Assembly (NCBI GenBank): GCA_036001325.1
Contig: DASYUK010000375.1
Location: 1,616 to 65,615 of the forward strand
Length of the DNA: 64,000 nt
Source of the DNA: Thermoanaerobaculia bacterium
Lineage (GTDB): Bacteria > Acidobacteriota > Thermoanaerobaculia > Gp7-AA8
Reading direction: 5' to 3'
The notes beneath the pieces are model-generated. The model searched no databases, was not told where the DNA came from, and saw only the letters and a program-made list of their open reading frames with translations. This document shows, in pieces, positions 7,729-46,541 of this stretch (positions are counted from its first letter, which is position 1; each line of letters opens with the position of its first letter). Position numbers and translations under genes: made by a program.

Positions 7729-7897
7729 GAAGAGTTCTCCCTGCGATCACGAGGCTGTTCACGTTCGGCAGCCCGGCCATCTGAGTAAGTCCAGATCCGT
7801 CGGCTTTGCGCCCCTGCGTCGCCGCAGGTTTGCCCTTATCGTGTGATCGCTTGTTGTAGGACCTTCAACGTGGCGCCGGGCTGTTTTATTCGTAGTT

Positions 7898-9615: not shown

Positions 9616-11174
9616 GGTCTCCTCCAGCGACGGCCGTCGCGCTCGATCAAGGCATCCGCCGCTTCCGGTCCCCACGTCCCCGCCGGATAGAAGTGCGGCG
9701 GCTTCGGATCTTCGGCCCAGCATTTCAGCAGCGGATCGAGCCACGCCCACGCCGTCTCCACTTCGTCGCGACGCGCGAACAGCGTCGAATCGCCGAGCAT
9801 CGTCTCGAGCAGCAGCCGTTCGTAAGCTTCCGGCGGCTCAGCACCGAACGAGGTCGCGTAGCGAAACTCCATCGTCACCGGCGCGGTCCGCACCGTCGGT
9901 CCCGGGAGCTTCGAATCGAACTTCAGCGAGATTCCTTCGTCGGGCTGAATGCGAATCGCCAGCACATTCGAGGGCATCTTCACTTTGCTGAACAGCGGAT
10001 ACGGTGCGGGGCGGAAGTGGATGGAGATATCGGTGACACGCTTGGATAGCCGCTTGCCGGCGCGGATGTAGAACGGCACGTCGGCCCATCGCCAGTTGTC
10101 GATGAAGACTTTCATCGCCGCGAACGTCTCCACTCGCGAGTTTGGATCGACGTGCGGCTCCTTCCGATAAGCGATCGCCGGCGAGCCGAGCACGGAGCCA
10201 TCCGTGTATTGGCCGCGCACCGCGAGCTGCTCCTCGCGGCCGGGTGGAAACTCGCGCATCGCGCGCAACACCTTCACCTTCTCGTCGCGGACCGCGTTGG
10301 CCTCGTACTCCACCGGCGGCTCCATCGCGACCAGAGAGACGAGTTGCAGCATGTGGTTCTGGATGATGTCGCGACTGATGCCGGCGGTCTCGAAATACCC
10401 GCCGCGCTTCTCGATGCCGATCGACTCCGCGACCGTGAACTGCACATGGTCGATATATTGACGATTCCAGAACGGCTCGAAGATTCCGTTCCCGAATCGC
10501 AGCACCAGCAGGTTCTGAACCGTTTCTTTGCCGAGGTAGTGGTCGATGCGGAAGACCTGGCGTTCCCGAAAGGTGCTGACGGCGACGCGATTCAACTCGC
10601 GCGCTGATGGCAGATCGTGGCCAAACGGTTTCTCGATGATGACGCGCGTGTACGGCCCGCCGCGCTCCGGATCGGTGACCATCCTCTGCCCGCCCAGGAT
10701 CTCGCAGATCGTCGGGAAGAACTGCGGCGGAACCGCGAAGTAGTAAATGCGCCGTCCGCCCGTGCCACGCGTGCGATCGCACTCTTCGAGCTTCTTGCGC
10801 AATCGCGTGTAGGCGTCGAGTTCACCGAACTCGCCCTGCACGTAAAAGAGACCCTTCGCGAAGTTCTGCCAGATCGCCTCATCGACCGGCTTCGTGCGCG
10901 CGAACTTGTCGCACGCTTCGCGCATGGCCATGCGAAAGGCGTCGTCCGAGTACTCCGGCCGCGCGAAGCCGATGATCGTCTGCCCGGCCGGAAGAAGCCC
11001 GTCGTGTGCGAGCGAATACAGGCCGGGGATCAGCTTCCGCTGTGTCAAATCGCCGGACGCGCCGAAGATGACCAGACAGGAGGCGTCGGGAACCCGTTCC
11101 TGATCCAGACCCTCTCGCAGAGGATTGGCCTCGAGGACGGGCGCCAGCGTCGCCATGAGTCCTTGATTATCCAT
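9612..11174 (-). CDS. zwf: Glucose-6-phosphate 1-dehydrogenase
   Basis: Signature RIDHYLGKE present (VFRIDHYLGKETVQNLLVLRFGN). N-terminal NADP-binding region GASGDL. 520 aa. Confidence 0.9.
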   Translation of the reverse strand: MDNQGLMATLAPVLEANPLREGLDQERVPDASCLVIFGASGDLTQRKLIPGLYSLAHDGLLPAGQTIIGFARPEYSDDAFRMAMREACDKFARTKPVDEAIWQNFAKGLFYVQGEFGELDAYTRLRKKLEECDRTRGTGGRRIYYFAVPPQFFPTICEILGGQRMVTDPERGGPYTRVIIEKPFGHDLPSARELNRVAVSTFRERQVFRIDHYLGKETVQNLLVLRFGNGIFEPFWNRQYIDHVQFTVAESIGIEKRGGYFETAGISRDIIQNHMLQLVSLVAMEPPVEYEANAVRDEKVKVLRAMREFPPGREEQLAVRGQYTDGSVLGSPAIAYRKEPHVDPNSRVETFAAMKVFIDNWRWADVPFYIRAGKRLSKRVTDISIHFRPAPYPLFSKVKMPSNVLAIRIQPDEGISLKFDSKLPGPTVRTAPVTMEFRYATSFGAEPPEAYERLLLETMLGDSTLFARRDEVETAWAWLDPLLKCWAEDPKPPHFYPAGTWGPEAADALIERDGRRWRRP

Positions 11175-11246
11175 GGGGTCAGGTCTTCAATTTTCAGTTT
11201 TTTCCACTTGCGGTAGGAAAAAACTGAAAATTGAAGACCTGACCCC
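11175..11246. repeat. Perfect 31-bp inverted repeat with a 10-nt loop, AT-rich, directly abutting the zwf start codon in the zwf/thiolase divergent intergenic region
   Basis: GGGGTCAGGTCTTCAATTTTCAGTTTTTTCC-acttgcggta-GGAAAAAACTGAAAATTGAAGACCTGACCCC; the arms are exact reverse complements (checked base by base). It generates mirrored peptides in track ORFs 11045..11251 and 11173..11421. Confidence 0.9.
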
Positions 11247-11269
11247 AGCAACTGCTAAAGTTCGCGGTC

Positions 11270-12562
11270 ATGTTCGAGTACATGCAACGCGTCGCGGTGA
11301 TCCGCGGCGTCCGCACCCCATTCGCAAAATCAGGAACGCACTACGCCCGCCTGTCGGCTCTCGATCTCGGCAAGATGGCCGTGACGGAGCTCGTCGAGCG
11401 CACAGGGATCCATCCGAATGAAGTGCAGGAAGTCGTCTTCGGCAACGTGATCCCCTCCGTCAAAGCCCCCAACATCGCCCGCGAAATCGTCCTCGGTACC
11501 GGCCTTCCGAAGAAGATCCCCGGCTACACGGTCGGCAAAGCGTGCACGTCGGCGAACCAGGCCATCACCGCTGCGGCGGACATGATCTCGCGCGGTTACG
11601 CCGACACGGTCATCGCCGGCGGATCGGAATCGCTCTCCGACATCCCGATTCTCTTCTCCCGAAACATGTCGGAGGCGCTGACCGGCGCACAGAAAGCGAA
11701 GAGCGTGGCCGCGAGGGTCGGCGCGTTCAAGAAAGTGCGGCCGAAGGATCTGGTCCCCGATGCGCCCGCGATCGCGGAGTCGACGACCGGTCTGTCGATG
11801 GGCGAATCGGCCGAGAAGATGGCGAAGGAGAATCGGATCTCGCGTGAGGCGCAGGACAAGTTCGCGCTGCAGAGTCACCTTCGTGCGGCGCAAGCGACCG
11901 AAAGTGGACGCTTCAAGGATGAAGTGATGACGGTGGTCGTGCCTCCCGGCTACGACGAGGTCGTCGAGATTGACAATCTGATTCGCGCCGACACGACGCT
12001 CGAGGCGCTTTCGAAGCTTCGGCCGGTATTCGATCGAAAGTACGGAACGCTGACCGCCGGCAACTCATCGCCGCTGACCGATGGTGCCGCCGCCGTGCTG
12101 CTGATGTCGGAAGACAAAGCGAAGTCGATGGGCTTCAAGCCGATCGGTTTCATCAGGAGCTATGCCTACGCCGCGACCGATCCGTTCGATCAGCTTCTAC
12201 AGGGACCCGTGTTCGCGTTACCGACGGCGCTCGATCGAGCGAAGGTCACGTTGAAAGACATCGGCGTGATCGAGATGCACGAGGCCTTCGCCGCACAAGT
12301 TTTGTCGAACATTCAATGGATCGGCTCGAAAAAGATCGCCCAGGAGAAACTCGGACGCAGCGAGCCGGTCGGCGATATCGATCCAGAGTCGATCAATCTG
12401 ACGGGCGGTTCGATCGCCCTCGGACATCCGTTTGGCGCGACAGGCGCGCGCATCGTCACGACGGTCTGCAACGAGCTGCAGCGCACCGGCAAACAATACG
12501 GACTCGTGACTGTGTGCGCGGCGGGCGGGATGGGCGTGGCGATGGTGCTCGAGCGGGAGTAG
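11270..12562 (+). CDS. Acetyl-CoA C-acyltransferase (thiolase family)
   Basis: Thiolase N-terminal pattern VIRGVRTPFAKSGTHYARLSALDLG. Active-site Cys region GYTVGKACTSANQAI. C-terminal CAAGGMGVAMVLERE. Confidence 0.9.
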   Translation: MFEYMQRVAVIRGVRTPFAKSGTHYARLSALDLGKMAVTELVERTGIHPNEVQEVVFGNVIPSVKAPNIAREIVLGTGLPKKIPGYTVGKACTSANQAITAAADMISRGYADTVIAGGSESLSDIPILFSRNMSEALTGAQKAKSVAARVGAFKKVRPKDLVPDAPAIAESTTGLSMGESAEKMAKENRISREAQDKFALQSHLRAAQATESGRFKDEVMTVVVPPGYDEVVEIDNLIRADTTLEALSKLRPVFDRKYGTLTAGNSSPLTDGAAAVLLMSEDKAKSMGFKPIGFIRSYAYAATDPFDQLLQGPVFALPTALDRAKVTLKDIGVIEMHEAFAAQVLSNIQWIGSKKIAQEKLGRSEPVGDIDPESINLTGGSIALGHPFGATGARIVTTVCNELQRTGKQYGLVTVCAAGGMGVAMVLERE

Positions 12563-12651
12563 CTCGTTCCGGCCGAACTTCTCAGACGATGCACGTTTTG
12601 CGGGCGAGGGTTCGAGCGAAGCAAGGGTATCGTCAAAGAGCATTTTGTAGA

Positions 12652-18278: not shown

Positions 18279-18349
18279 AGAGGCAATCGCTCTCCGACCT
18301 GCCGGTTCTCTCTTCCCGCAACGTGGCACAGTGCGCTGACGGGGTCCAC

Positions 18350-18533
18350 CGAAAGCGAAGAGCGTGGCGGCGAAGCTCGGCGCGTTGAAGGGAGTGCCGG
18401 CCAAGGATCTCGTCCGCGATGCTCCTGCGATGGCGGAGTCGCAACGAACTGCAGCGCATCGACAAACAGTATGGGCTGGTGACCGTGCGCGGCGGGCGGG
18501 ATGGGGGTGGCGATGGTGCTCGAGCGGGAGTAG
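18350..18533 (+). pseudogene. Decayed fragment of a thiolase paralog (middle segment fused to the 3' end with stop codon; about 680 bp internal deletion)
   Basis: 18350-18440 aligns to 11690-11790 of the intact thiolase (KAKSVAAKLGALKGVPAKDLVRDAPAMAES versus KAKSVAARVGAFKKVRPKDLVPDAPAIAES). It then jumps to the equivalent of 12468-12562 (NELQRIDKQYGLVTV...MVLERE-stop). About 85% nt identity by eye. Confidence 0.7.
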
Positions 18534-18552
18534 CTCGGTCGTGGGTCGTAGG

Positions 18553-19996: not shown

Positions 19997-22107
19997 GCGT
20001 TGTTCACGCGGTCTGTCCGCACGATTGCCCCGACACCTGCTCGATGCTCGTCACGGTCGAGAACGGCCGGGCCACGCGCGTCGACGGCAATCGCGATCAT
20101 CCGGTGACGCAGGGTTTTCTCTGCACGAAAGTCTCGAAATACCTCGAGCGAACGTACCACGCGGAACGTTTGCTCTATCCGCAAATCCGCATCGGCGCGA
20201 AGGGTGAAGGGAAATTCCGGCGCGCGAGCTGGGATGAAGCGCTCAACCTTGTCGCGGCGCGATTGCAGTCGATCATCGACTCGCCCGACGGGCCGCAGGC
20301 GATCCTCCCCTACTCGTACGCCGGCACGATGGGTCTCATCCAGGGCTCCTCGATGGATCGGCGCTTCTTTCATCGCATCGGCGCATCACTCCTCGCGCGC
20401 ACGATCTGCGCGTCTGCCGGCGGTGAAGCGCTCAATCTCACGTATGGCACGCGCATGGGGACGGACACGGAGAGCGTCGGCGAGGCAAAGCTGATCATCC
20501 TCTGGGGAACAAACACGCTGACGTCGAATCCGCACCTCTGGCCGTATGTGCGCAAGGCAAAGGCGAAGGGCGCGCCCGTCATCTGCATCGATCCGCTCCG
20601 CACGCGAACGGCCGCTGCATCCGACGAGCACATCGCCATTCGTCCCGGCACCGACGCCGCGCTCGCGTTGGCGATGATGTATCTCCTCTTCCGTGAGGGG
20701 CTGGAAGATCGTCAATATCTTGACCAGATGACGATCGGATGGGAGAAGCTGCGCGACCGCGTCCTTGCCGACTACGCGCCGTCGCGCGTCGCGGAGATCT
20801 GTCGCATTCCTGTCGAGACGATCGAGCGTCTGGCGCGTGAGTACGGCACGACGCGCCCGACGTTCATCCGCCTCAACTACGGCCTCCAGCGTCACGCCGG
20901 CGGCGGTTCCGCGGTTCGTGCAATTTCGCTGCTCCCGGCGATCACCGGTGCGTGGAACGACATCGGCGGCGGCTGCCAGCTCTCGACCTCGGCCACTTTC
21001 TCGCTCGACACGCATGCGCTCGAGCGCCCCGATCTGATCCGCCGCGGTACGCGCACGATCAACATGTCGCGACTCGGCGAAGCGCTCGTCGACATCGATG
21101 ATCCGCCGGTGAAGGCGATGATCGTCTACAACTCGAATCCGGGCGCGGTCGCGCCGCGGCGCGAGAAAGTCGTGCGCGGACTGAAGCGCGACGATCTCTT
21201 CACCGTCGTCCTCGAGCACTTCCAGACGGATACCGCCGATTACGCGGACGTGCTATTGCCGGCGACGACGCAGCTCGAGCACGACGACCTTCACAAGGCA
21301 TATGGTCACCTCTATCTGATGTACAACCGCCGCGCGATCGAGCCCCTCGGCGAGGCCTTGCCGAATTCCGAGATCTTCCGGCGCCTCGCGGCGAAGATGC
21401 GATTGGATTATCCCGAGCTGAAAGAGTCCGACGAGGAAATGATGATTGCTGCCCTTCTCCCGGCGGGAGAAGGTGCCGGAACGGCGGATGAGGGCCACCC
21501 CTCACCCGGCCTTCGGCCACCCTCTCCCGGTGGGAGAGGGCTCTTGAACATCCTCCAGGAGCGCGGCTGGGTGCGCATCGATGTGCCGAAGCCGCATCTG
21601 CCGTTCAAAGCGGGTGCTCGTCTGCGGACACCGAGTGGAAAGATCGAGATCGAGTCGAAAGGATTCGCCGCTGCCGGTGCTGACGCGTTGCCGTCGTACA
21701 TTCCGCCGTATGAATCGGAAGAGCGCGATCCCGAGCTCGTTCAGAGATATCCGCTCGCGCTGATCTCGCCGCCGGCGCACGCGTTTTTGAACTCGACATT
21801 CGTCAACGTCGCGTCGCTGCGGCGCTCCGCTGGAAAGCCGACACTCGAGATCCACGCCGACGACGCCACAGCGCGCGACATCGCCAGCGGCGATCGCGTG
21901 ACGATCTACAACGATCGCGGCCGGTTCAGTGCCGTGGCGGTGGTGACTGATCGGGTTCGACCGGGCGTGGTGGCCGCGCCGTCGATCTGGTGGCCAAAGC
22001 TGACCGCCGATCGCGCCAACGCGAATCACACCACCTCGGAAGCGATCACCGATGTCGGCGGTGGGGCGACGTTCTACGACAACATGGTCGAGGTCGCGCC
22101 GGCATGA
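19993..22107 (+). CDS. Molybdopterin (bis-MGD) oxidoreductase, MopB superfamily (formate dehydrogenase/nitrate reductase-like catalytic subunit)
   Basis: N-terminal 4Fe-4S motif CPHDCPDTC...C (VCPHDCPDTCSMLV...GFLCTKVS). 704 aa. GTG start overlaps the M20 stop by 4 nt. Confidence 0.85.
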   Translation: MSVVHAVCPHDCPDTCSMLVTVENGRATRVDGNRDHPVTQGFLCTKVSKYLERTYHAERLLYPQIRIGAKGEGKFRRASWDEALNLVAARLQSIIDSPDGPQAILPYSYAGTMGLIQGSSMDRRFFHRIGASLLARTICASAGGEALNLTYGTRMGTDTESVGEAKLIILWGTNTLTSNPHLWPYVRKAKAKGAPVICIDPLRTRTAAASDEHIAIRPGTDAALALAMMYLLFREGLEDRQYLDQMTIGWEKLRDRVLADYAPSRVAEICRIPVETIERLAREYGTTRPTFIRLNYGLQRHAGGGSAVRAISLLPAITGAWNDIGGGCQLSTSATFSLDTHALERPDLIRRGTRTINMSRLGEALVDIDDPPVKAMIVYNSNPGAVAPRREKVVRGLKRDDLFTVVLEHFQTDTADYADVLLPATTQLEHDDLHKAYGHLYLMYNRRAIEPLGEALPNSEIFRRLAAKMRLDYPELKESDEEMMIAALLPAGEGAGTADEGHPSPGLRPPSPGGRGLLNILQERGWVRIDVPKPHLPFKAGARLRTPSGKIEIESKGFAAAGADALPSYIPPYESEERDPELVQRYPLALISPPAHAFLNSTFVNVASLRRSAGKPTLEIHADDATARDIASGDRVTIYNDRGRFSAVAVVTDRVRPGVVAAPSIWWPKLTADRANANHTTSEAITDVGGGATFYDNMVEVAPA
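21490..21541. repeat. REP-like GC-rich hairpin element inserted in frame inside the Mo-oxidoreductase CDS
   Basis: GAGGGCCACCCCTCACCCGGCCTTCGGCCACCCTCTCCCGGTGGGAGAGGGC, with stem CCCTCTCCC/GGGAGAGGG. Related copies at 45474-45585 and 59356-59430 are intergenic. Here it encodes EGHPSPGLRPPSPGGRGL. Confidence 0.6.
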
Positions 22108-30900: not shown

Positions 30901-31130
30901 GGAGGGATACTCGGAGATCCCCGCCTGAGCCGTGTGGAGGATTCTCACTCGAACCTGTAAACAAACAGGTGGGCGTCCTACTGGGGCCGTTTTGGCTACC
31001 TTCTGAGGTCCCTCGCTACGCTTGGGACGAAGGCGTGCACGCGGCCCGCAGACGCGGACACCCGAAGCAAGAATTACGGTTCAAGCGTTAGATCGTTCAT
31101 CACGCACTCTGCAGGGATTCTCCGAAAATC
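30901..31130 (-). ncRNA. ssrS: Probable 6S RNA (ssrS) downstream of zapA and upstream of rny
   Basis: The minus-strand transcript has a 5' segment UUCGGAGAAUCCCUGC (complement of plus 31111-31126) and a 3' segment GGGAUCUCCGAG (complement of plus about 30905-30916) that can pair as a closing stem. E. coli 6S ends ...CUCGGAGAUUCCCU and lies downstream of zapA (ygfE). Boundaries are approximate. Confidence 0.5.
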
Positions 31131-33967: not shown

Positions 33968-36900
33968 ATGTCGCACGGCAGAAAACCGACAAGAAACCTC
34001 GACGCTCTCCAGATCACCTACGCTGATCCGGCAGGGCACAAGGAGAAGGTCAAGAACCGTGTGACGAACGTTCCTCTCTCCCGCGAGTACGATCACATTC
34101 CCTTCGTTCCTGAGAAGTTCGGCGGGACGAAACCGAATGAGGAACCGGAGGAAAAGACTCCGAAACTCCGCAACCGTGCAACCGCGAAACGCCCCTACGC
34201 CGAGCTCCGCGCGGCAAGCGCGTTCTCCTTCCTCGACGGTGCTTCGCTGCCCGAAGACTTGATGTACCACGCCGCCGATAAGGATCTGCCGGCGATGGCT
34301 CTCGTCGACACGAATGGTGTGTACGGCGCTCCTCGGTTCTATTCGGCAGCGAAGAAAACAGGGGTCAAGGCGCTCGTCGGAAGCGAACTGGTTCTCGAGA
34401 CCGACCACCGCTTCACAGTCCTCGTCGAAAACCGCACCGGCTATAAAAACCTGTGCAAGCTCGTCACGGCTGGAGCGGCCGGGCGCGAGAAAGGGAAAGC
34501 GCGCTTCAACTGGGGATTGATCGAGCAGTACAACGAAGGTCTGCACTGCCTCACGCGTGCCGATGACGAGACCATCAACAAAATCGCCGGCATTTTCAAA
34601 AACAGAACGCACCTCGAGTTGCAGCGACATTTCAATCGCGACGAAGAGCGTCACAACATCCGCCTGGTCGATCTCGCGCGGCGTCTGAAGCTGCCGATCG
34701 TCGCGACGAACGGCGTCCGCTACGCCCGCGCACAGGATAAGGAGCTGCACGACGTCCTCACGTGCATCCGCGAGACGACACACGTCGACAAAGCGGGCCG
34801 CCTCCTGGGCGTGAATCGGGAGCGCTACGTCAAGACCGCCGATGAGATGTGCCGCCTGTTCGCCGATCTGCCGGAAGCGATCGATGGCGCCTGGTCGCTC
34901 GCCAACACGCTCGACTTCACGCTCGCCGACCTCGGCTACCAGTTCCCTGACTATCCGCTGCCGCCGGGAGAGACTACAACATCGTTTCTGCGCAAGATCG
35001 CCTGGAACTCGGCAAAGTCGCGTTTCCGTCCGCTCACGGCGAGAGCGCAGTCGCAGATCGAGAAAGAGCTGAACATGATCGAGAAGCTCGATCTGGCCGG
35101 CTACTTCCTCATCGTCTGGGACATCGTTCAGTTCTGCAATCGCGAAAAGATCATCGTGCAGGGCCGCGGCTCGGCGGCCAACAGCGCCGTCTGCTACGCC
35201 CTCGGCATCACCGCGGTCGATCCGGTGAAGATGGAGCTGCTCTTCGAGCGCTTCCTCTCCGAAGAGCGCGGAGAGTGGCCGGACATCGATCTCGATCTCC
35301 CCTCCGGCGATCAGCGCGAGAAAGTCATCCAGCACGTCTACAAAACGTACGGCGTGCACGCCGCGGCGATGACCGCGAACGTCATCACGTATCGCGATCG
35401 CTCCGCGGCGCGCGAAGTTGGCAAAGCGCTCGGCTATTCGCTCGAGCAGGCCGACAAACTCTCGAAATGCGTCTCGACCTGGAACTTCGGCGAGATCCGC
35501 GAAGCGATGGAGAACCTGCCGGGTGAGCTCGAGAAAACGGGATTCGATCCCGCTGATCTCCGCGTACAACACTTCATGCGCCTCTACATGCACATCCAGA
35601 ATCTGCCGCGACATCTCGGCCAGCACTCCGGCGGCATGGTCATGGCGAAAGGACGGCTCGACGAAGTCGTGCCGCTCGAGCCGGCATCGATGCCCGGCCG
35701 CGTCGTCATTCAGTGGGACAAGGACGACTGTGCCGATCTCGGCCTCATCAAAGTCGACCTCCTCGGCCTCGGCATGCTGGCGGCGATCGAAGAGGCACTG
35801 CCGCTCATCCGCGACAACGAAGGAAAAGAAGTCGATCTCGCCCATCTGCCTCAGAACGATCCGCTCGTTTACAAGATGCTGAACGAGGCTGACACGATCG
35901 GCATGTTCCAGGTGGAGAGCCGCGCGCAGATGGCTTCACTGCCGAGGAATGCGCCGAAGAAGTTCTACGACATCGTCGTGCAGGTGGCGATCATCCGTCC
36001 CGGCCCGATTGTCGGCGGCATGATCCGTCCGTTCTTCGATCGGCGTCAGGGGCGCGCGCCGGTCGAGTATCCGCACCCGTGCCTCGAGCCGATTCTCAAG
36101 CGCACGCTCGGCGTACCGCTGTTCCAGGAGCAGCTTCTCCGTATCGCGATGGTCGCGGCCAATTTTACCGGCGGCGAAGCCGAAGAGCTGCGAAGAGCGA
36201 TGGGATTCAAGAGGTCGATGGAGCGGATGCACGAGATCGAAGGACGGCTGCGCGCGGGGATGACTACGAACGGCATCGATGCGAAAGCGCAGGATCAGAT
36301 CGTCAAGTCGATCACGTCGTTCGCGCTCTACGGCTTTCCCGAATCGCACGCGGCGAGCTTCGCGCTGATCGCGTATGCGAGCGCGTACATCAAAGCGCGA
36401 CATCCGGCGGCTTTTTATGTCTCGCTGCTGAACGCGTGGCCGATGGGTTTCTATCATCCGGCGACGCTCGTCAAAGATGCGCAGCGGCATGACACCGAGG
36501 TGCTTCCGATCGACATGAATCATTCTGGTTGGAAGTGCCGTTGGGAAAACGGCGGCGTACGTCTCGGACTGCGATTCGTTAAAGGGCTGCGCGAAGCGAC
36601 GGCAAAGAAGATCGAAGCGAATCAGCCATTCCAATCGACGGAAGATCTCGCCTATCGGTGCAAGCTGCGCGACGATCAGCTCACGAAGCTCGCCTACGCC
36701 GGGGCACTGAGCTCACTCGGACTCACGAGACGAGGGGCGTTGTGGCAGGCGTCGAAAGCGGCAAAGCCCGCGGGCGAACTCTTCGAAGGACGCGCCGCCG
36801 AGGGCGGCGGCGCTCCACTGAAGGAGATGTCAGAGATCCAGAACACCATGGCTGACTACCACGCGATGGAGCTCACGACGGGGCCGCATCTCGTCGAGCA

Positions 36901-37257: not shown

Positions 37258-39831
37258 ATGCTCGCGCCCGGGACGATGCTCTCGCGTTATCGCGTCGAGT
37301 CTCTGCTCGGCAGCGGAGGGATGGGCGAGGTCTACAAAGCGCGCGACGAGTCACTCGAGCGGCCCGTCGCGATCAAGATTCTTCGATCGGATGTGACGCG
37401 AGATGAGAACCGCGTTCGCCGGTTCGTTCAGGAAGCGAAGACCGCCTCGTCGCTGAATCACCCCCACATCGTTCACGTCTACGAGATTGGCGTGAGCGAT
37501 TCGACGCATTTCATCGCCATGGAGTATGTCGAGGGTTCGACGCTTCGCGATCATCTGAGGACTGATGGAACAGCGCGCCTGCTCACGCTTCTGGCGCAGG
37601 TGGCCGATGCCCTGGCGAAGGCACACGCTGCCGGCGTCGTCCACCGCGATCTGAAGCCGGAGAACATCCTCGTCACCTCTGACGGTTATGCCAAGATTGC
37701 CGATTTCGGACTGGCAAAACTGCTGGACCGCAAAGACGCCTCGGCGATCTCAGTGACGGTCGACAAGGTGGCCACGAAAGAAGGAGTCGCCGTTGGGACG
37801 ATCGGTTACATGTCGCCCGAACAGGTGCAGGGAGGACGGGTCGACGAGCGTTCCGACATCTTCTCATTCGGCTGCATTCTCTACGAAGCCGTGGCGAAAC
37901 GACGTCCATTCGAAGGAGCGTCGACGTTCGATACGTTTCAGAAAATCGTCGCGGCCGAACCGCCGCCGCTGTCCCCTTCCAGCGATGTACCGCCGGCGCT
38001 CCAACGAGTCATGCGCCGTTGCCTCGCCAAGGAACCCGATGACCGGTACCACTCCGCAAAAGATCTCGCCATCGACCTGCGCGAGTTGCGTGAGGAGTTG
38101 AGCGGATCGCATCGAAGCGTAGTGGTCCCGAAGAGGATCGGGTACGCCGCACTCGCAGTTGTTTTCATCGCTCTCATTGCCGCTACGATTCTGGTGAAGC
38201 GTCGATCGCCATCACCGCCAGCGACGGCTCCGATCCGAATCAAGCAGCTCACCACCAGCGGCAAGGTTTCCGAGGCCGCGATCTCCCCCGACGGAAAGTA
38301 TCTCGCGTATGTCGACCGCGGAGTGCTGCGGGAGTCGAGCATCTCCCTGCTGCACCTTCCGACAGGAAGCGCGGTGCAGATCGTGCCGCGTCAGAGCGGG
38401 ATCGAATTCGCCAGCGTCTCGTTTTCGCCCGATGGCGACTACATCGATTACACGCGCCGGCCGCTTGCGAGCTCTCAGCATGATCTCGAGCGGATCCCGG
38501 TTCTCGGCGGAACGTCTCAGCAGGTGCTCGCTGATGTCGACACCCCCGTCGCTTTCGCGCCGGACGGTCGCCATATCGCATTCGTTCGCGGAGCGAAAGA
38601 GGAGTCGTTCCTCATGGTCGCCGACGGCGAAGGTCATTCTGAGCGAAAGCTGGCCATCGTTAAGCGACCGCAACGACTGGCGGTCGCGGCACCGGCCTGG
38701 TCGCCGGATGGAAAGACGATCGCGGCAATCGTCCGCGAACCTCGGCCGCTGCTGCTCGCTGTCAGTGTCGAAAACGGTTCGACGCGAACGATTTCTGGAC
38801 CACAATTTCAGTGGCTCACCAGCGTAGCGTGGTCGCGCGACGACGCGCTTCTCGTCACGGGAGTGGAGAGGTCATCGCGCAATGCGGAAATCTGGCGCAT
38901 CAATCTGGCGACGGGCTCCGGCGCGCCGATCACGAGCGGCATCATTGGATACCAGGGTCTCAGTCTCTCGAAAAACGGAACGGCGATTGTCAGTCTGGCC
39001 CAGAACCTTTTCGCGACTCTAACCGCCATGCCTTTCAACGCCGCTGGAGAACCCGCGCCGATCGTTGTGGGCAGCGCGCGTAATGGCACCGGTGGCCTCG
39101 CAGCGCTTCCCGATGGACGCATCGTCTACTCGTCGGATGCAGGGAATCGACACGGCATCTGGATCATCGACGCGAATGGGAAGAACGCGCGCGAACTTCT
39201 CGTCCCGACGGCCGGATCGTCACTCGGATGGCCGGCTGTTTCTCCGGATGGACGCCTCATCGCGTACGTTTCCCAATCGGGCGAGAAGCACACGATTCAC
39301 GTCGCCGACATCGCCTCCGGGAACGAGCTTTCAGTGCCCGCATTCCCTCCAGACTCATTCTGGCCACAGTTCTCCGCCGACGGCGAGTCGATCGTGTTTG
39401 TGAGCGACAAGCCGGGGACGGAAACTTCCTCGCTGTATCGGCGCGCATTGCGTGCAGGTGAGCTCACACAGATTCTTCCGCGCGCGTCGCACCCGGCAGT
39501 TTCGCCAGATGGAAAATGGATCGCGTTTTTCCTGCACGGCATCTCGGTCGTTTCGTCCCGAGGCGGAAAGCCGCGCCAGATCGTCGAACCACCGTCGCTG
39601 AAGATCCCTTTGCGATGGACATCTGACAGCAAAGCGATTCTCAATCCGGAAGTTCACAATGATGTCGTGAACATCTGGGCTTATCCGATCGGCGGCGGCG
39701 CGCCGAGACAGGTCACGCACTTCACCTCACAGAACATCTTCTTCTTCGATGTCACGCGCGACGGCAAGCGGCTGATTCTCTCGCGCGGCGACGTCACCAC
39801 CGATGCCGTGCTGATCGAAAATGCACCCTAA
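37258..39831 (+). CDS. PknD-like Ser/Thr protein kinase with a TM helix and an extracytoplasmic TolB/WD40-like beta-propeller
   Basis: Kinase: GSGGMGEVYKARD, VAIKIL, HRDLKPENILV, DFGLAK, GTIGYMSPEQ. TM IGYAALAVVFIALIAATILV. Repeats ISPDGKYLAY, FSPDGDYIDY, FAPDGRHIAF, WSPDGKTIAA, VSPDGRLIAY, FSADGESIVF, VSPDGKWIAF. 18 nt downstream of dnaE2 on the same strand. Confidence 0.8.
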   Translation: MLAPGTMLSRYRVESLLGSGGMGEVYKARDESLERPVAIKILRSDVTRDENRVRRFVQEAKTASSLNHPHIVHVYEIGVSDSTHFIAMEYVEGSTLRDHLRTDGTARLLTLLAQVADALAKAHAAGVVHRDLKPENILVTSDGYAKIADFGLAKLLDRKDASAISVTVDKVATKEGVAVGTIGYMSPEQVQGGRVDERSDIFSFGCILYEAVAKRRPFEGASTFDTFQKIVAAEPPPLSPSSDVPPALQRVMRRCLAKEPDDRYHSAKDLAIDLRELREELSGSHRSVVVPKRIGYAALAVVFIALIAATILVKRRSPSPPATAPIRIKQLTTSGKVSEAAISPDGKYLAYVDRGVLRESSISLLHLPTGSAVQIVPRQSGIEFASVSFSPDGDYIDYTRRPLASSQHDLERIPVLGGTSQQVLADVDTPVAFAPDGRHIAFVRGAKEESFLMVADGEGHSERKLAIVKRPQRLAVAAPAWSPDGKTIAAIVREPRPLLLAVSVENGSTRTISGPQFQWLTSVAWSRDDALLVTGVERSSRNAEIWRINLATGSGAPITSGIIGYQGLSLSKNGTAIVSLAQNLFATLTAMPFNAAGEPAPIVVGSARNGTGGLAALPDGRIVYSSDAGNRHGIWIIDANGKNARELLVPTAGSSLGWPAVSPDGRLIAYVSQSGEKHTIHVADIASGNELSVPAFPPDSFWPQFSADGESIVFVSDKPGTETSSLYRRALRAGELTQILPRASHPAVSPDGKWIAFFLHGISVVSSRGGKPRQIVEPPSLKIPLRWTSDSKAILNPEVHNDVVNIWAYPIGGGAPRQVTHFTSQNIFFFDVTRDGKRLILSRGDVTTDAVLIENAP

Positions 39832-45473: not shown

Positions 45474-45585
45474 TCCTTCTCCCCGCGGGAGAAGGTGGCG
45501 CGGAGCGCCGGATGAGGGGCGCCCCTCTCGGACGAATCTCGCCCCTCACCCGCCGCTTCGCGGCTCCCTCTCCCGATGGGAGAGG
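45474..45585. repeat. Two head-to-head copies of the REP-like GC-rich hairpin element in the rplY/prs intergenic region
   Basis: Copy A (reverse orientation): CCTTCTCCCCGCGGGAGAAGGTGGCGCGGAGCGCCGGATGAGGGG. Copy B (forward): GCCCCTCACCCGCCGCTTCGCGGCTCCCTCTCCCGATGGGAGAGGGC. Compare copies at 21490 and 59356. Confidence 0.6.
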
Positions 45586-45593
45586 GCACGGAA

Positions 45594-46541
45594 TTACATC
45601 TCGAACAATGAGCTCACCGAATCCTCATTATGGATACGCTTGATCGCCTCCGCGAGCAGCTCGGCGATCGATAGCGTCTGCAGCTTTGAGCACTCCTGCT
45701 CCTTGTCGATCATGGGGATGCTGTTCGTCGTGATGACCTGAGCGAGACGCGACTTGTTGATCCGATCGATCGCCGGTCCGGAGAACACGCCGTGTGTGCA
45801 CGCCGCGGAGATCGAACGCGCGCCCTGGGCGAGCAACGCCTCAACGGAGTGGATCAGTGTCCCGCCCGTGTCGATGATGTCGTCGACGACAAAGACATTG
45901 CGACCCTCGACCTCGCCGATGATGTGCATCACTTCAGTCTGATTCGCGGCCACGCGCCTTTTGTCGATGATGGCCAGCGTCGCGCCGAGGCGTTTGGCGT
46001 ACGCGCGGGCGCGCTCGACGCCGCCGGCATCGGGCGAGACGATCGTCACATCATCCATGTTCAGTTTCTTCAGATGACCGACGATGACCGGCGCGGCGAA
46101 GAGATGGTCGACAGGAATGTTGAAGAATCCCTGGATCTGTGCGGCATGAAGATCGAGTGTCAGGACGCGGTCGGCGCCGGCGGCGGTGATGAGATCAGCG
46201 ACGAGTTTGGATGTGATCGGAACGCGCGGCTTGTCCTTTCGATCCTGCCGCGCGTAACCGTAGTAAGGAATCACGGCGGTGACGCGCCGCGCCGATGAAC
46301 GCTTGAACGCGTCGAGCATGATCAGCAGCTCCATCAACGCGTCGTTGACCGGCGGACAGGTCGGCTGAATCACGAACACGTCGGCGCCACGGACATTCTC
46401 ATCAACCTGCACGTAGTTCTCGCCGTCGGAGAAACTGTACAGGGTGACGTGACCCGGCTCTTCGCCGAGGCGCTCACAGATCTCCTGCGTGAGCGCAGGA
46501 TGCGACCTGCCCGAAAAGACTTTCAGTTCTGGACGGTGCAA
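45594..46541 (-). CDS. prs: Ribose-phosphate pyrophosphokinase
   Basis: LKVFSGRSHPALTQEICERLG, DLHAAQIQGFFNIPVDHL, PRPP-binding loop VVSPDAGGVERARAYAKRL...VDDIIDTGGTL. Confidence 0.9.
   Translation of the reverse strand: MHRPELKVFSGRSHPALTQEICERLGEEPGHVTLYSFSDGENYVQVDENVRGADVFVIQPTCPPVNDALMELLIMLDAFKRSSARRVTAVIPYYGYARQDRKDKPRVPITSKLVADLITAAGADRVLTLDLHAAQIQGFFNIPVDHLFAAPVIVGHLKKLNMDDVTIVSPDAGGVERARAYAKRLGATLAIIDKRRVAANQTEVMHIIGEVEGRNVFVVDDIIDTGGTLIHSVEALLAQGARSISAACTHGVFSGPAIDRINKSRLAQVITTNSIPMIDKEQECSKLQTLSIAELLAEAIKRIHNEDSVSSLFEM

Follow-up and report, generated by a model that had tools for sequence, protein, structure and literature searches.

A repeat pair inside a MopB gene

The 64-kb window analyzed here (64,000 nt of the Thermoanaerobaculia contig DASYUK010000375.1) carries a molybdopterin oxidoreductase gene of the DMSO reductase (MopB) family that is interrupted, in frame, by an inverted pair of short GC-rich repeat units. 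Pfam recognizes Molybdop_Fe4S4, Molybdopterin and Molydop_binding domains in its product, and Foldseek matched the model to MtsZ, TorA, Nap, DMSO reductase and FdhH (E ~1e-45 and TM 0.74–0.79 against the PDB). The protein thus combines the Fe4S4, molybdopterin and dinucleotide-binding domains with the fold of the family.

The foreign segment spans 88 nt (21453–21540) and consists of two head-to-head units, the same architecture as that of an intergenic pair at 45.5 kb. Divided into codons, the region reads GCC CTT CTC CCG GCG GGA GAA GGT GCC GGA ACG GCG GAT GAG GGC CAC CCC TCA CCC GGC CTT CGG CCA CCC TCT CCC GGT GGG AGA GGG CTC. The original prediction described a single in-gene copy that keeps the frame and encodes ...DEGHPSPGLRPPSPGGRGL...; that copy is present and the frame is indeed kept, but a second, inverted unit to its left had been missed, and the insertion is a dimer. 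Five of the six reading frames of the unit are free of stop codons.

The coordinates of these features, together with those of other features of the window, are collected in Table 1.

Table 1. Coordinates of the MopB gene, the repeat units and their parts, and RNA features of the window
Feature	Position	Strand	nhmmer profile positions	Evidence and remarks
Molybdopterin oxidoreductase, DMSO reductase (MopB) family, 704 aa	19993–22107	+		Pfam, Foldseek; open reading frame (ORF) intact
In-gene unit 1, T-type	21453–21497	-	21452–21494 (-)	nhmmer E = 4e-10; 9/9 purine-motif triplets satisfied
Unit 1, pyrimidine arm CCTTCTCCC, followed by loop GGC	21453–21461			Read on the + strand
Unit 1, purine arm GGGAGAAGG	21465–21473			Read on the + strand
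Unit 1, small hairpin GCCG-GAA-CGGC	21475–21485			Read on the + strand
Unit 1, third strand GGATGAGGG, followed by spacer CCA	21486–21494			Read on the + strand
In-gene unit 2, C-type	21498–21540	+	21497–21540 (+)	nhmmer E = 2e-9; the copy named in the original prediction
Unit 2, head CCCTCACCC	21499–21507			
Unit 2, small hairpin GGCC-TTC-GGCC	21508–21518			
Unit 2, CCCTCTCCC-GGT-GGGAGAGGG	21520–21540			
Element-encoded peptide L488–G516 (LLPAGEGAGTADEGHPSPGLRPPSPGGRG)	21454–21540	+		Orthologue alignments; net +26 residues
Intergenic unit, T-type, left half of head-to-head pair	45475–45519	-	45474–45519 (-)	nhmmer E = 3e-12
Intergenic unit, C-type, right half of pair	45542–45586	+	45542–45586 (+)	nhmmer profile match
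Solo intergenic unit, T-type	59380–59422	+	59380–59422 (+)	nhmmer profile match
c-di-GMP-I-GGC riboswitch	7763–7843	-		
6S RNA	30914–31120	-		
tRNA	51099–51172	-		
Group II intron D1–D4 match, at window edge	63782–63951	+		Rfam RF02001, 108 bits

The repeat is real. The terminal hairpin CCYTCTCCC-N3-GGGAGARGG has five matches in the window against none expected (100 shuffles), which confirms the repeated hairpin family of the original prediction, and the motif CCCCTCAYCCG is present beside every one of them. Aligning the five copies gave a unit length of ~45 nt, and an nhmmer profile built from 143 units returned exactly five full units and no degenerate ones. Two of the five lie inside the MopB ORF and three between genes; at the DNA level, the in-gene copies are 87–88% identical to the intergenic ones. 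The segment in the MopB gene is element DNA. The intergenic pair is located between prs (45594–46541, minus strand) and the L25/Ctc gene, and its heads are separated by a 22-nt spacer (45520–45541, CGCCCCTCTCGGACGAATCTCG) that contains a GANTC site. The solo unit lies between the stops of the convergent ORFs 57075–59351 (plus strand) and 59425–60453 (minus strand), with a degenerate half hairpin, CCCTCTCCCTCCGGGAG, just upstream of it (59360–59376).

In the protein, the stretch between ...EEMM and RGW... is 41 residues long versus 12–21 native residues in orthologues. About four native codons (~12 nt) were apparently replaced by the insertion. AlphaFold modeled residues 488–513 as coil between two helices (480–487 and 514–524), with predicted local confidence (pLDDT) below 50 at residues 491–510, and the segment falls in the linker that joins the Pfam molybdopterin and dinucleotide-binding domains. 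The surface loop first proposed for this position is thus a variable loop, modeled as a disordered coil. A single long hairpin can form from all 88 nt (DNA -37.3 kcal/mol, RNA -68.6 kcal/mol, z ~ -5.6 to -5.9). Judged from its predicted stability, this hairpin in the mRNA may be a cost to the host, and nothing we saw suggests that the enzyme gains from the added loop.

Recurrent insertions at one turn of the enzyme

Among the 120 closest orthologues (at least 73% identity to the window protein), the 88-nt segment is carried by P0001 and P0002 only, and about 110 have no insertion and a native loop of 12–21 residues. The segment is therefore a lineage-specific insertion that keeps the frame, which supports the original prediction. 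The window protein is 100% identical to an NCBI protein from a Thermoanaerobaculia metagenome-assembled genome, and an identical protein (P0002) was called independently in JGI data on four contigs; for the latter reason, we rule out an assembly artefact as the source of the insertion allele. We therefore find it scarcely credible that the segment is an assembly chimera or a native part of the enzyme under selection, such as a functional Pro/Gly linker. The intact ORF and conserved gene order would be compatible with such an origin, but nearly all orthologues are without the segment, its DNA is that of the intergenic copies, the same allele recurs in independent JGI contigs, and the residues are disordered in the model.

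The closest relatives have other alleles. P0003 and P0004 (90–93% identical) read AALLP-GRGLL at the loop. The DNA of the P0003 locus (L001) there is GCC CTT CTC CCC GGG AGA GGG CTC, 69 nt shorter than the window allele, and keeps the outer arms only as a 19-nt mini-hairpin, CCTTCTCCC-C-GGGAGAGGG. P0005 (locus L002, ~84% identical) has one unit, which agrees with the window's left unit in position, orientation and codon phase; the small hairpin of the P0005 unit differs yet is compensated (GCGC-TTC-GCGC versus GCCG-TTC-CGGC). The insertion is thus polymorphic, and the pair is collapsible.

Four other palindromic insertions, in other lineages, occupy the same turn as the window pair. Loci L204 and L208 (P0016 and P0020) carry CCCCTCACCC-TG-CCCTCTCCCCGC-GTG-CGGGGAGAGGG-T-GCTGCGAAGCAGC-GGGTGAGGGG, a rearranged insert made of tail-to-tail modules of the same family (nhmmer E ~1e-5). 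L203 (P0011) has a 48-nt perfect palindrome with the GTAG...CTAC ends of the classical GTAG-REP type, and L205 (P0019) a 33-nt imperfect palindrome, GGAGAGCGGCCGTCCCG...CGGGACGCCCGCTCTCC, both in frame. Every loop insertion starts 0–3 codons past a conserved 'AL', and the carriers are spread over four to five separate clades. When the 120 proteins are aligned with MAFFT, this turn is the sole internal site with insertions of at least 5 residues. From these alignments, our reading is that elements landed here repeatedly and independently, and that selection for an intact enzyme acted as the filter. L204 (filled) and L207 (empty) are ~99% identical over 2 kb outside a ~100-nt patch around the loop (alignment columns ~1300–1500), where 71 differences fall in one 100-nt window. 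This patch looks like a short recombination or gene-conversion tract through which filled and empty alleles were exchanged.

The original prediction had allowed for either tolerance of, or selection for, a Pro/Gly-rich loop. Nothing indicates selection for it. Unrelated palindromes have landed in the same turn in other lineages, which makes tolerance at one permissive turn the better fit.

Small palindromic repeats inside protein genes have a precedent in the Rickettsia palindromic elements (RPE), reportedly described by Ogata et al. in 2000. Like RPE, the units are small, palindromic and apparently selfish repeats that sit in frame in conserved protein genes, add a peptide and leave the ORF intact. 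As with RPE, the in-gene repeat is common to intergenic copies and lies in a conserved gene whose ORF is kept, and orthologues occur without it. The sequences are unrelated, however, and RPE are 100–150 nt long and confined to one genus, whereas the present unit is ~45 nt long, crosses phyla and is built to a triplex rule. Intragenic, in-frame insertion is uncommon, as was first supposed, but documented, with RPE in Rickettsia and BRE in Bordetella as known cases; RUP and BOX have also been reviewed among repeats inside coding sequences (PMC3184786). We compared the unit directly with BRE and ruled that family out, since the sequence differs.

The repeat family and its triplex rule

A strict-pattern survey using one genome per species showed that the motif is not unique to these loci; it occurs in many phyla. 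The matches listed include Alphaproteobacteria (Bradyrhizobium, Rhizobium, Devosia, Caulobacter, Sphingomonas, Azospirillum), Gammaproteobacteria (Xanthomonas, Dyella, Rhodanobacter, Lysobacter), Betaproteobacteria, Geobacteraceae, Binatia, Planctomycetes and Acidobacteria. From this survey, we took 120 genome loci (2 Mb), and 143 units were used for family statistics. A plasmid collection gave 968 places in 281 records, and the units are abundant and unannotated in rhizobial plasmids: in 40 of the 40 records listed, either no feature lay under the match or the record was unannotated. Rfam, searched at gathering-threshold and permissive settings, had no family for the units and gave only sub-threshold matches to generic hairpins (microRNA). 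The motif strings had no relevant match in the literature searched.

On the G-rich strand, the unit is ordered as pyrimidine arm, loop, purine arm, small variable hairpin and purine third strand. When the last block is laid antiparallel to the purine arm, it gives only G.G, A.A and T.A, which are the purine-motif triplets; all five window units obey this rule at nine of nine positions. The small hairpin has 71 distinct sequences among the 143 units and is nearly always a 4–6-bp GC hairpin with a 3-nt loop, with a mean pairing of 4.4 bp versus 2.4 ± 0.15 in shuffles. Strict linkage holds among the three variable positions of head, arm and arm: 107 units have TTA, 34 have CCG and 2 have TTG.

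We then searched the 2 Mb of loci without a pattern, which yielded 437 readings of pyrimidine-loop-purine hairpins. A 9/9 third strand was present within 36 nt downstream for 50.6% of the readings versus 2.1% upstream. Because each palindromic hairpin is read on both strands, this means that essentially every hairpin has a one-sided third strand. Changes in the arm are matched by changes in the third strand in at least 10 classes, for example GGGGGAAGG with GGAAGGGGG or GGATGGGGG, GGGAGGGGA with AGGGGAGGG, GGGGGAGGG with GGGTGGGGG, and AAGGGGGGG with GGGGGGGTT. Two other pairing schemes were rejected. A pyrimidine-motif (C+.G-C) triplex on the C-rich strand leaves one systematic mismatch, which the purine-motif reading of the G-rich strand removes, and Watson-Crick pairing of head and purine arm fails to explain the three-way linkage of variants.

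This design resembles that of the BoxC/PIT repeats, which are said to have been described in E. coli and other Proteobacteria by Bachellier and by Hoyne and Maher (2000). To our knowledge, the BoxC/PIT/TMECO triplex repeats have remained orphans since the 1990s. The TMECO motif is 5'-CCCTCNCCC-N3-6-GGGNGAGGG-N3-GGGNGAGGG, with the sequences CCCTCTCCC..GGGAGAGGG-TTA/CCG-GGGTGAGGG; it was counted 3610 times in 262 proteobacterial genomes and forms a stable triplex in vitro (PMC4666352). In E. coli, TMECO is always intergenic and includes five inverted pairs, each combining a type A and a type B copy, and such pairs are sometimes reduced to a plain stem-loop in other strains, a 'palindromic effect' (PMC4666352).

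The C-type units of the window (21498–21540 and 45542–45586) match all three TMECO blocks, namely the C-rich arm CCCTCTCCC, the purine arm GGGAGAGGG and the purine third strand GGGTGAGGG, and both families use purine-motif triplets. The T-type units (CCTTCTCCC/GGGAGAAGG/GGATGAGGG) differ by one co-varying triplet, with A.A-T replacing G.G-C. Extreme sequence conservation and a usually intergenic position are common to both families, as is the occurrence of solo copies or inverted pairs of two subtypes (A+B in E. coli, T+C in both window pairs), and the L001 allele matches the collapse of pairs to a simple stem-loop. The first loop is 3–5 nt here versus 3–6 nt in the published motif. The second loop is where the architectures part: it is an 8–16-nt GC hairpin here and 3 nt in TMECO, and the published search (loops of 1–6 nt) would miss the structured variant. 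Relatives with a 2–3-nt linker do exist (L212, L213, L214). Further differences are the acidobacterial host, the in-frame copies inside genes (MopB here; hsdR and hsdM in L100 and L120) and an association with DUF559 genes that is unreported for TMECO. On the evidence of their blocks, the units fit the BoxC/PIT/TMECO class of intrastrand-triplex repeats, with a small GC hairpin replacing the 3-nt second loop.

The original prediction called the units REP-like. As a description of GC-rich hairpin repeats the label holds only loosely; the GTAG/CGTC tag is absent, and the triplex class fits them better. REPs are thought to be mobilised by RAYT transposases, and REP/REPIN-RAYT systems are reportedly treated by Nunvar (2010) and by Bertels and Rainey (2011). 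We consider it very unlikely that the units are classical REP/REPIN sequences moved by RAYT (an IS200/IS605-like HUH tyrosine transposase), with the in-gene pair as a REPIN. The units do share with REPs their GC-rich palindromes, mostly intergenic position and frequent inverted pairing, and the palindrome in L203 shows that a true GTAG...CTAC element has entered the same loop. However, no GTAG/CGTC tag was found in the 143 units, whose flanks are variable, and the unit is asymmetric, with a third-strand block and two hairpins. Its near-identical sequence in many phyla is unlike the species-specific REPs. No HUH...Y-x3-NP motif was found in the window by regular expression, a crude test, and inverted units elsewhere enclose genes for DUF559 proteins, not Y1 transposases.

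The window has several other repeats and RNA features. Two further GC-rich palindromic families, with cores GTGGAGCGCCGCCGCCCCCGGCGGCG (2774–2804, 36793–36821, 37991–38025, 60125–60201) and AGTGGAGGACAGGCGCCCCTGCCTGTCC (1408–1435, 55011–55093), include some inverted pairs and are distinct from the triplex-type units. A perfect 32-nt inverted repeat with a 10-nt spacer (TGGGGTCAGGTCTTCAATTTTCAGTTTTTTCC and its complement) at 11174–11247 is AT-richer than its surroundings. Segments within 11628–12569 and 18285–18540, ~6 kb apart, are 82–96% identical and look like a partial duplication of a gene 3' end with downstream sequence. An exact 46-nt repeat at 50351–50396 and 51095–51140 suggests two tRNA gene copies. 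The remainder of the group II intron, with any reverse transcriptase ORF, would fall past the end of the window.

DUF559 nuclease genes and the origin of the insertion

Triplex-type units are associated with genes for DUF559 endonucleases. All 17 DUF559 loci inspected at the DNA level, from diverse taxa, have hairpin-plus-third-strand modules within ~250 nt. The 17 include two loci chosen for a peptide signature (L209, L210; see below) and two for its absence (L211, L212), as well as ten from the plasmid collection (Sinorhizobium, Shinella, Sphingomonas, Azospirillum, Methylobacterium, Deinococcus, E. coli, Neisseria, Picosynechococcus). In at least 11 of them (L052, L100, L120, L209, L210, L212, L213, L214, L216, L219, L222), modules of lineage-specific sequence stand on both sides in inverted orientation. 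L211 and L215 have them upstream only and L220 downstream only, while L217, L218 and L221 are less clear. A hidden Markov model search of the 2 Mb of genome loci found three DUF559 genes in total, and all three abut units.

The arrangement in L212, T-unit(-)-DUF559-C-unit(+), is that of the window pairs plus an ORF. In the Deinococcus locus (L219), a 45-nt inverted repeat brackets the DUF559 gene between paaD and paaZ. The spacer between the heads of the intergenic window pair (45520–45541) is at the position that the nuclease ORF occupies in L052, L209 and L212. In E. coli L220, two BoxC/TMECO-like sequences, CCCTCACCCCAACCCTCTCCCTGAAAGGGCGAGGGGG and a more degenerate copy, lie directly 3' of the DUF559 gene (~810–990). 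A composite transposon, considered for units 1.3–1.4 kb apart, was rejected; in L024, such units merely flank an ordinary gene. In the papers searched that mention DUF559, no link of the domain to repeats was found.

Long ORFs that span units were sought in the 120 genome loci, and two cases emerged, both in type I restriction-modification genes. In L120 (3772–4215), hsdM is broken in frame by [unit]-DUF559-[inverted partial unit]. In L100 (5552–7000), the frame of hsdR runs through two 62-nt mini-elements and one DUF559 element. Unit-encoded peptides (such as PSPLGRG, PLPGGEG and LSRKGRG) also occur in short terminal extensions of 17 of 119 DUF559 proteins from a large database, versus 0 in 75,263 residues of MopB sequence used as a control. 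Several of these signature-bearing proteins run on into HsdM at the site seen in L120. The same hsdM site is likewise occupied in database proteins P0138 and P0219. From the gene structures, this looks like recurrent homing into hsdM and hsdR.

A survey of PD-(D/E)XK nucleases put VSR, DUF559 and DUF2726 in one clade (PMC3424549), and I-Bth0305I is a homing endonuclease of the Vsr-like/EDxHD type (PMC3239194). DUF559 has the nuclease fold in common with these enzymes, which are a precedent for selfish homing. They differ in residing in group I introns or inteins, whereas DUF559 genes are free-standing or read through in frame, and flanked by triplex units. A second analogy is REP/REPIN-RAYT, in which short GC-rich palindromes, single or in inverted doublets, flank a putative mobilising gene. 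There, a tag is present, the enzyme is an HUH tyrosine transposase rather than a Vsr-like PD-(D/E)XK nuclease, and the cross-phylum conservation seen here is lacking. By analogy, the role of DUF559 would parallel the mobilisation of REP by RAYT.

Taken together, a T+C pair of the BoxC/PIT/TMECO class was probably inserted into a tolerant turn of MopB, with a DUF559 nuclease as its likeliest driver, because units flank small genes for DUF559 endonucleases in many phyla. The pair would have entered a short turn between two surface helices in an ancestor of this Thermoanaerobaculia lineage. It may have survived for three reasons: the unit is open in most frames, the frame used encodes a flexible peptide rich in Pro, Gly, Ser and Arg, and the turn appears to be the only place in the protein that tolerates extra residues. 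Units might enter at structure-prone or broken DNA, or be copied in by repair after nuclease cleavage, and the survivors would be in-frame landings in permissive loops only. The hairpin/triplex fold would be recognized in cis, and a DUF559 nuclease would be the trans factor, acting on it by homing or break repair. Inverted pairs are presumably unstable, and the 90%-identical orthologue would have been reduced to the outermost arms, as in E. coli TMECO pairs. Most likely, the insertion consists of selfish or structure-prone DNA that is neutral or carries a mild cost, and is not an adaptation.

The arrangement of units and genes suggests that DUF559 mobilises the units. We also put forward, more tentatively, a general form of the proposal, which is quite possible but which we stop short of calling probable. 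It holds that the triplex repeats are the cis-acting ends or non-autonomous derivatives of cross-phylum selfish elements whose enzyme is a DUF559 endonuclease and whose substrate is a hairpin plus purine triplex, and which invade genes in frame, their ends being translated into flexible Pro/Gly linkers.

Several points weigh against these proposals. The window itself contains no DUF559 gene detectable by hidden Markov model search, and Holder et al. (2015) found no mobility gene near TMECO in E. coli (PMC4666352). The DUF559 gene could home into units instead of moving them. Triplex formation by the long-loop variant is predicted from the base-triplet rule. A single deletion in the window allele does not yield the 19-nt hairpin of L001, as one extra substitution is needed, and we infer only from sequence that the change was a deletion rather than an insertion into an older hairpin. 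One ancient insertion followed by several losses may account for both the left unit of the window and the unit of L002. Finally, we checked for the target-site duplication that would be expected of a miniature inverted-repeat transposable element. The pairs are inverted repeats, but no duplication or exact pre-insertion site could be defined at the MopB loop because native loop length differs between lineages, and some native sequence was apparently replaced.

The units could instead be structural motifs useful to the host (replication or transcription pause sites, protectors of mRNA 3' ends, recombination hot spots) that need no dedicated enzyme and spread through recombination or horizontal transfer, with DUF559 genes as independent homing genes that target them. 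The solo unit between convergent gene ends, the pair in the prs-ctc spacer and the strong conservation of sequence and triplex rule across phyla are consistent with this. So are the ties of TMECO to local genome variability and polymerase stops, with no transposase nearby (PMC4666352), and the placement of DUF559 either between the heads or between the tails of units, which implies no fixed element architecture. However, a regulatory role leaves the copies in coding regions (MopB; hsdM and hsdR in L120 and L100) unexplained, as well as the presence/absence polymorphism at ~99% identity, and a passage on PIT elements in the TMECO paper mentions earlier tests in which promoter and terminator activity was absent (PMC4666352). 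We consider this explanation unlikely and favor insertion of a selfish or structure-prone pair.

If the assignment to the BoxC/PIT/TMECO class holds, that class extends past the Proteobacteria, where TMECO was counted, to Acidobacteria, Planctomycetes and other phyla, and includes a new triplex-repeat architecture whose structured second loop is undetectable by the published triplex search. If DUF559 does drive the units, they would form a nuclease-driven counterpart of the REP/RAYT system, with MopB here and hsdM and hsdR elsewhere as examples of gene invasion with or without a DUF559 ORF. The published TMECO work explicitly found no mobility gene, and the DUF559 neighborhood supplies a candidate. 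DUF559 would then be a testable candidate enzyme for the repeats, and the repeats would give a candidate function to a very widespread domain. In this enzyme, recurrent hits on one helix-helix turn, by palindromic DNA of at least three kinds, give a natural map of insertion tolerance and a clean case of repeat-driven variation in protein length. If this holds, such elements are able to live inside genes for essential-type enzymes.

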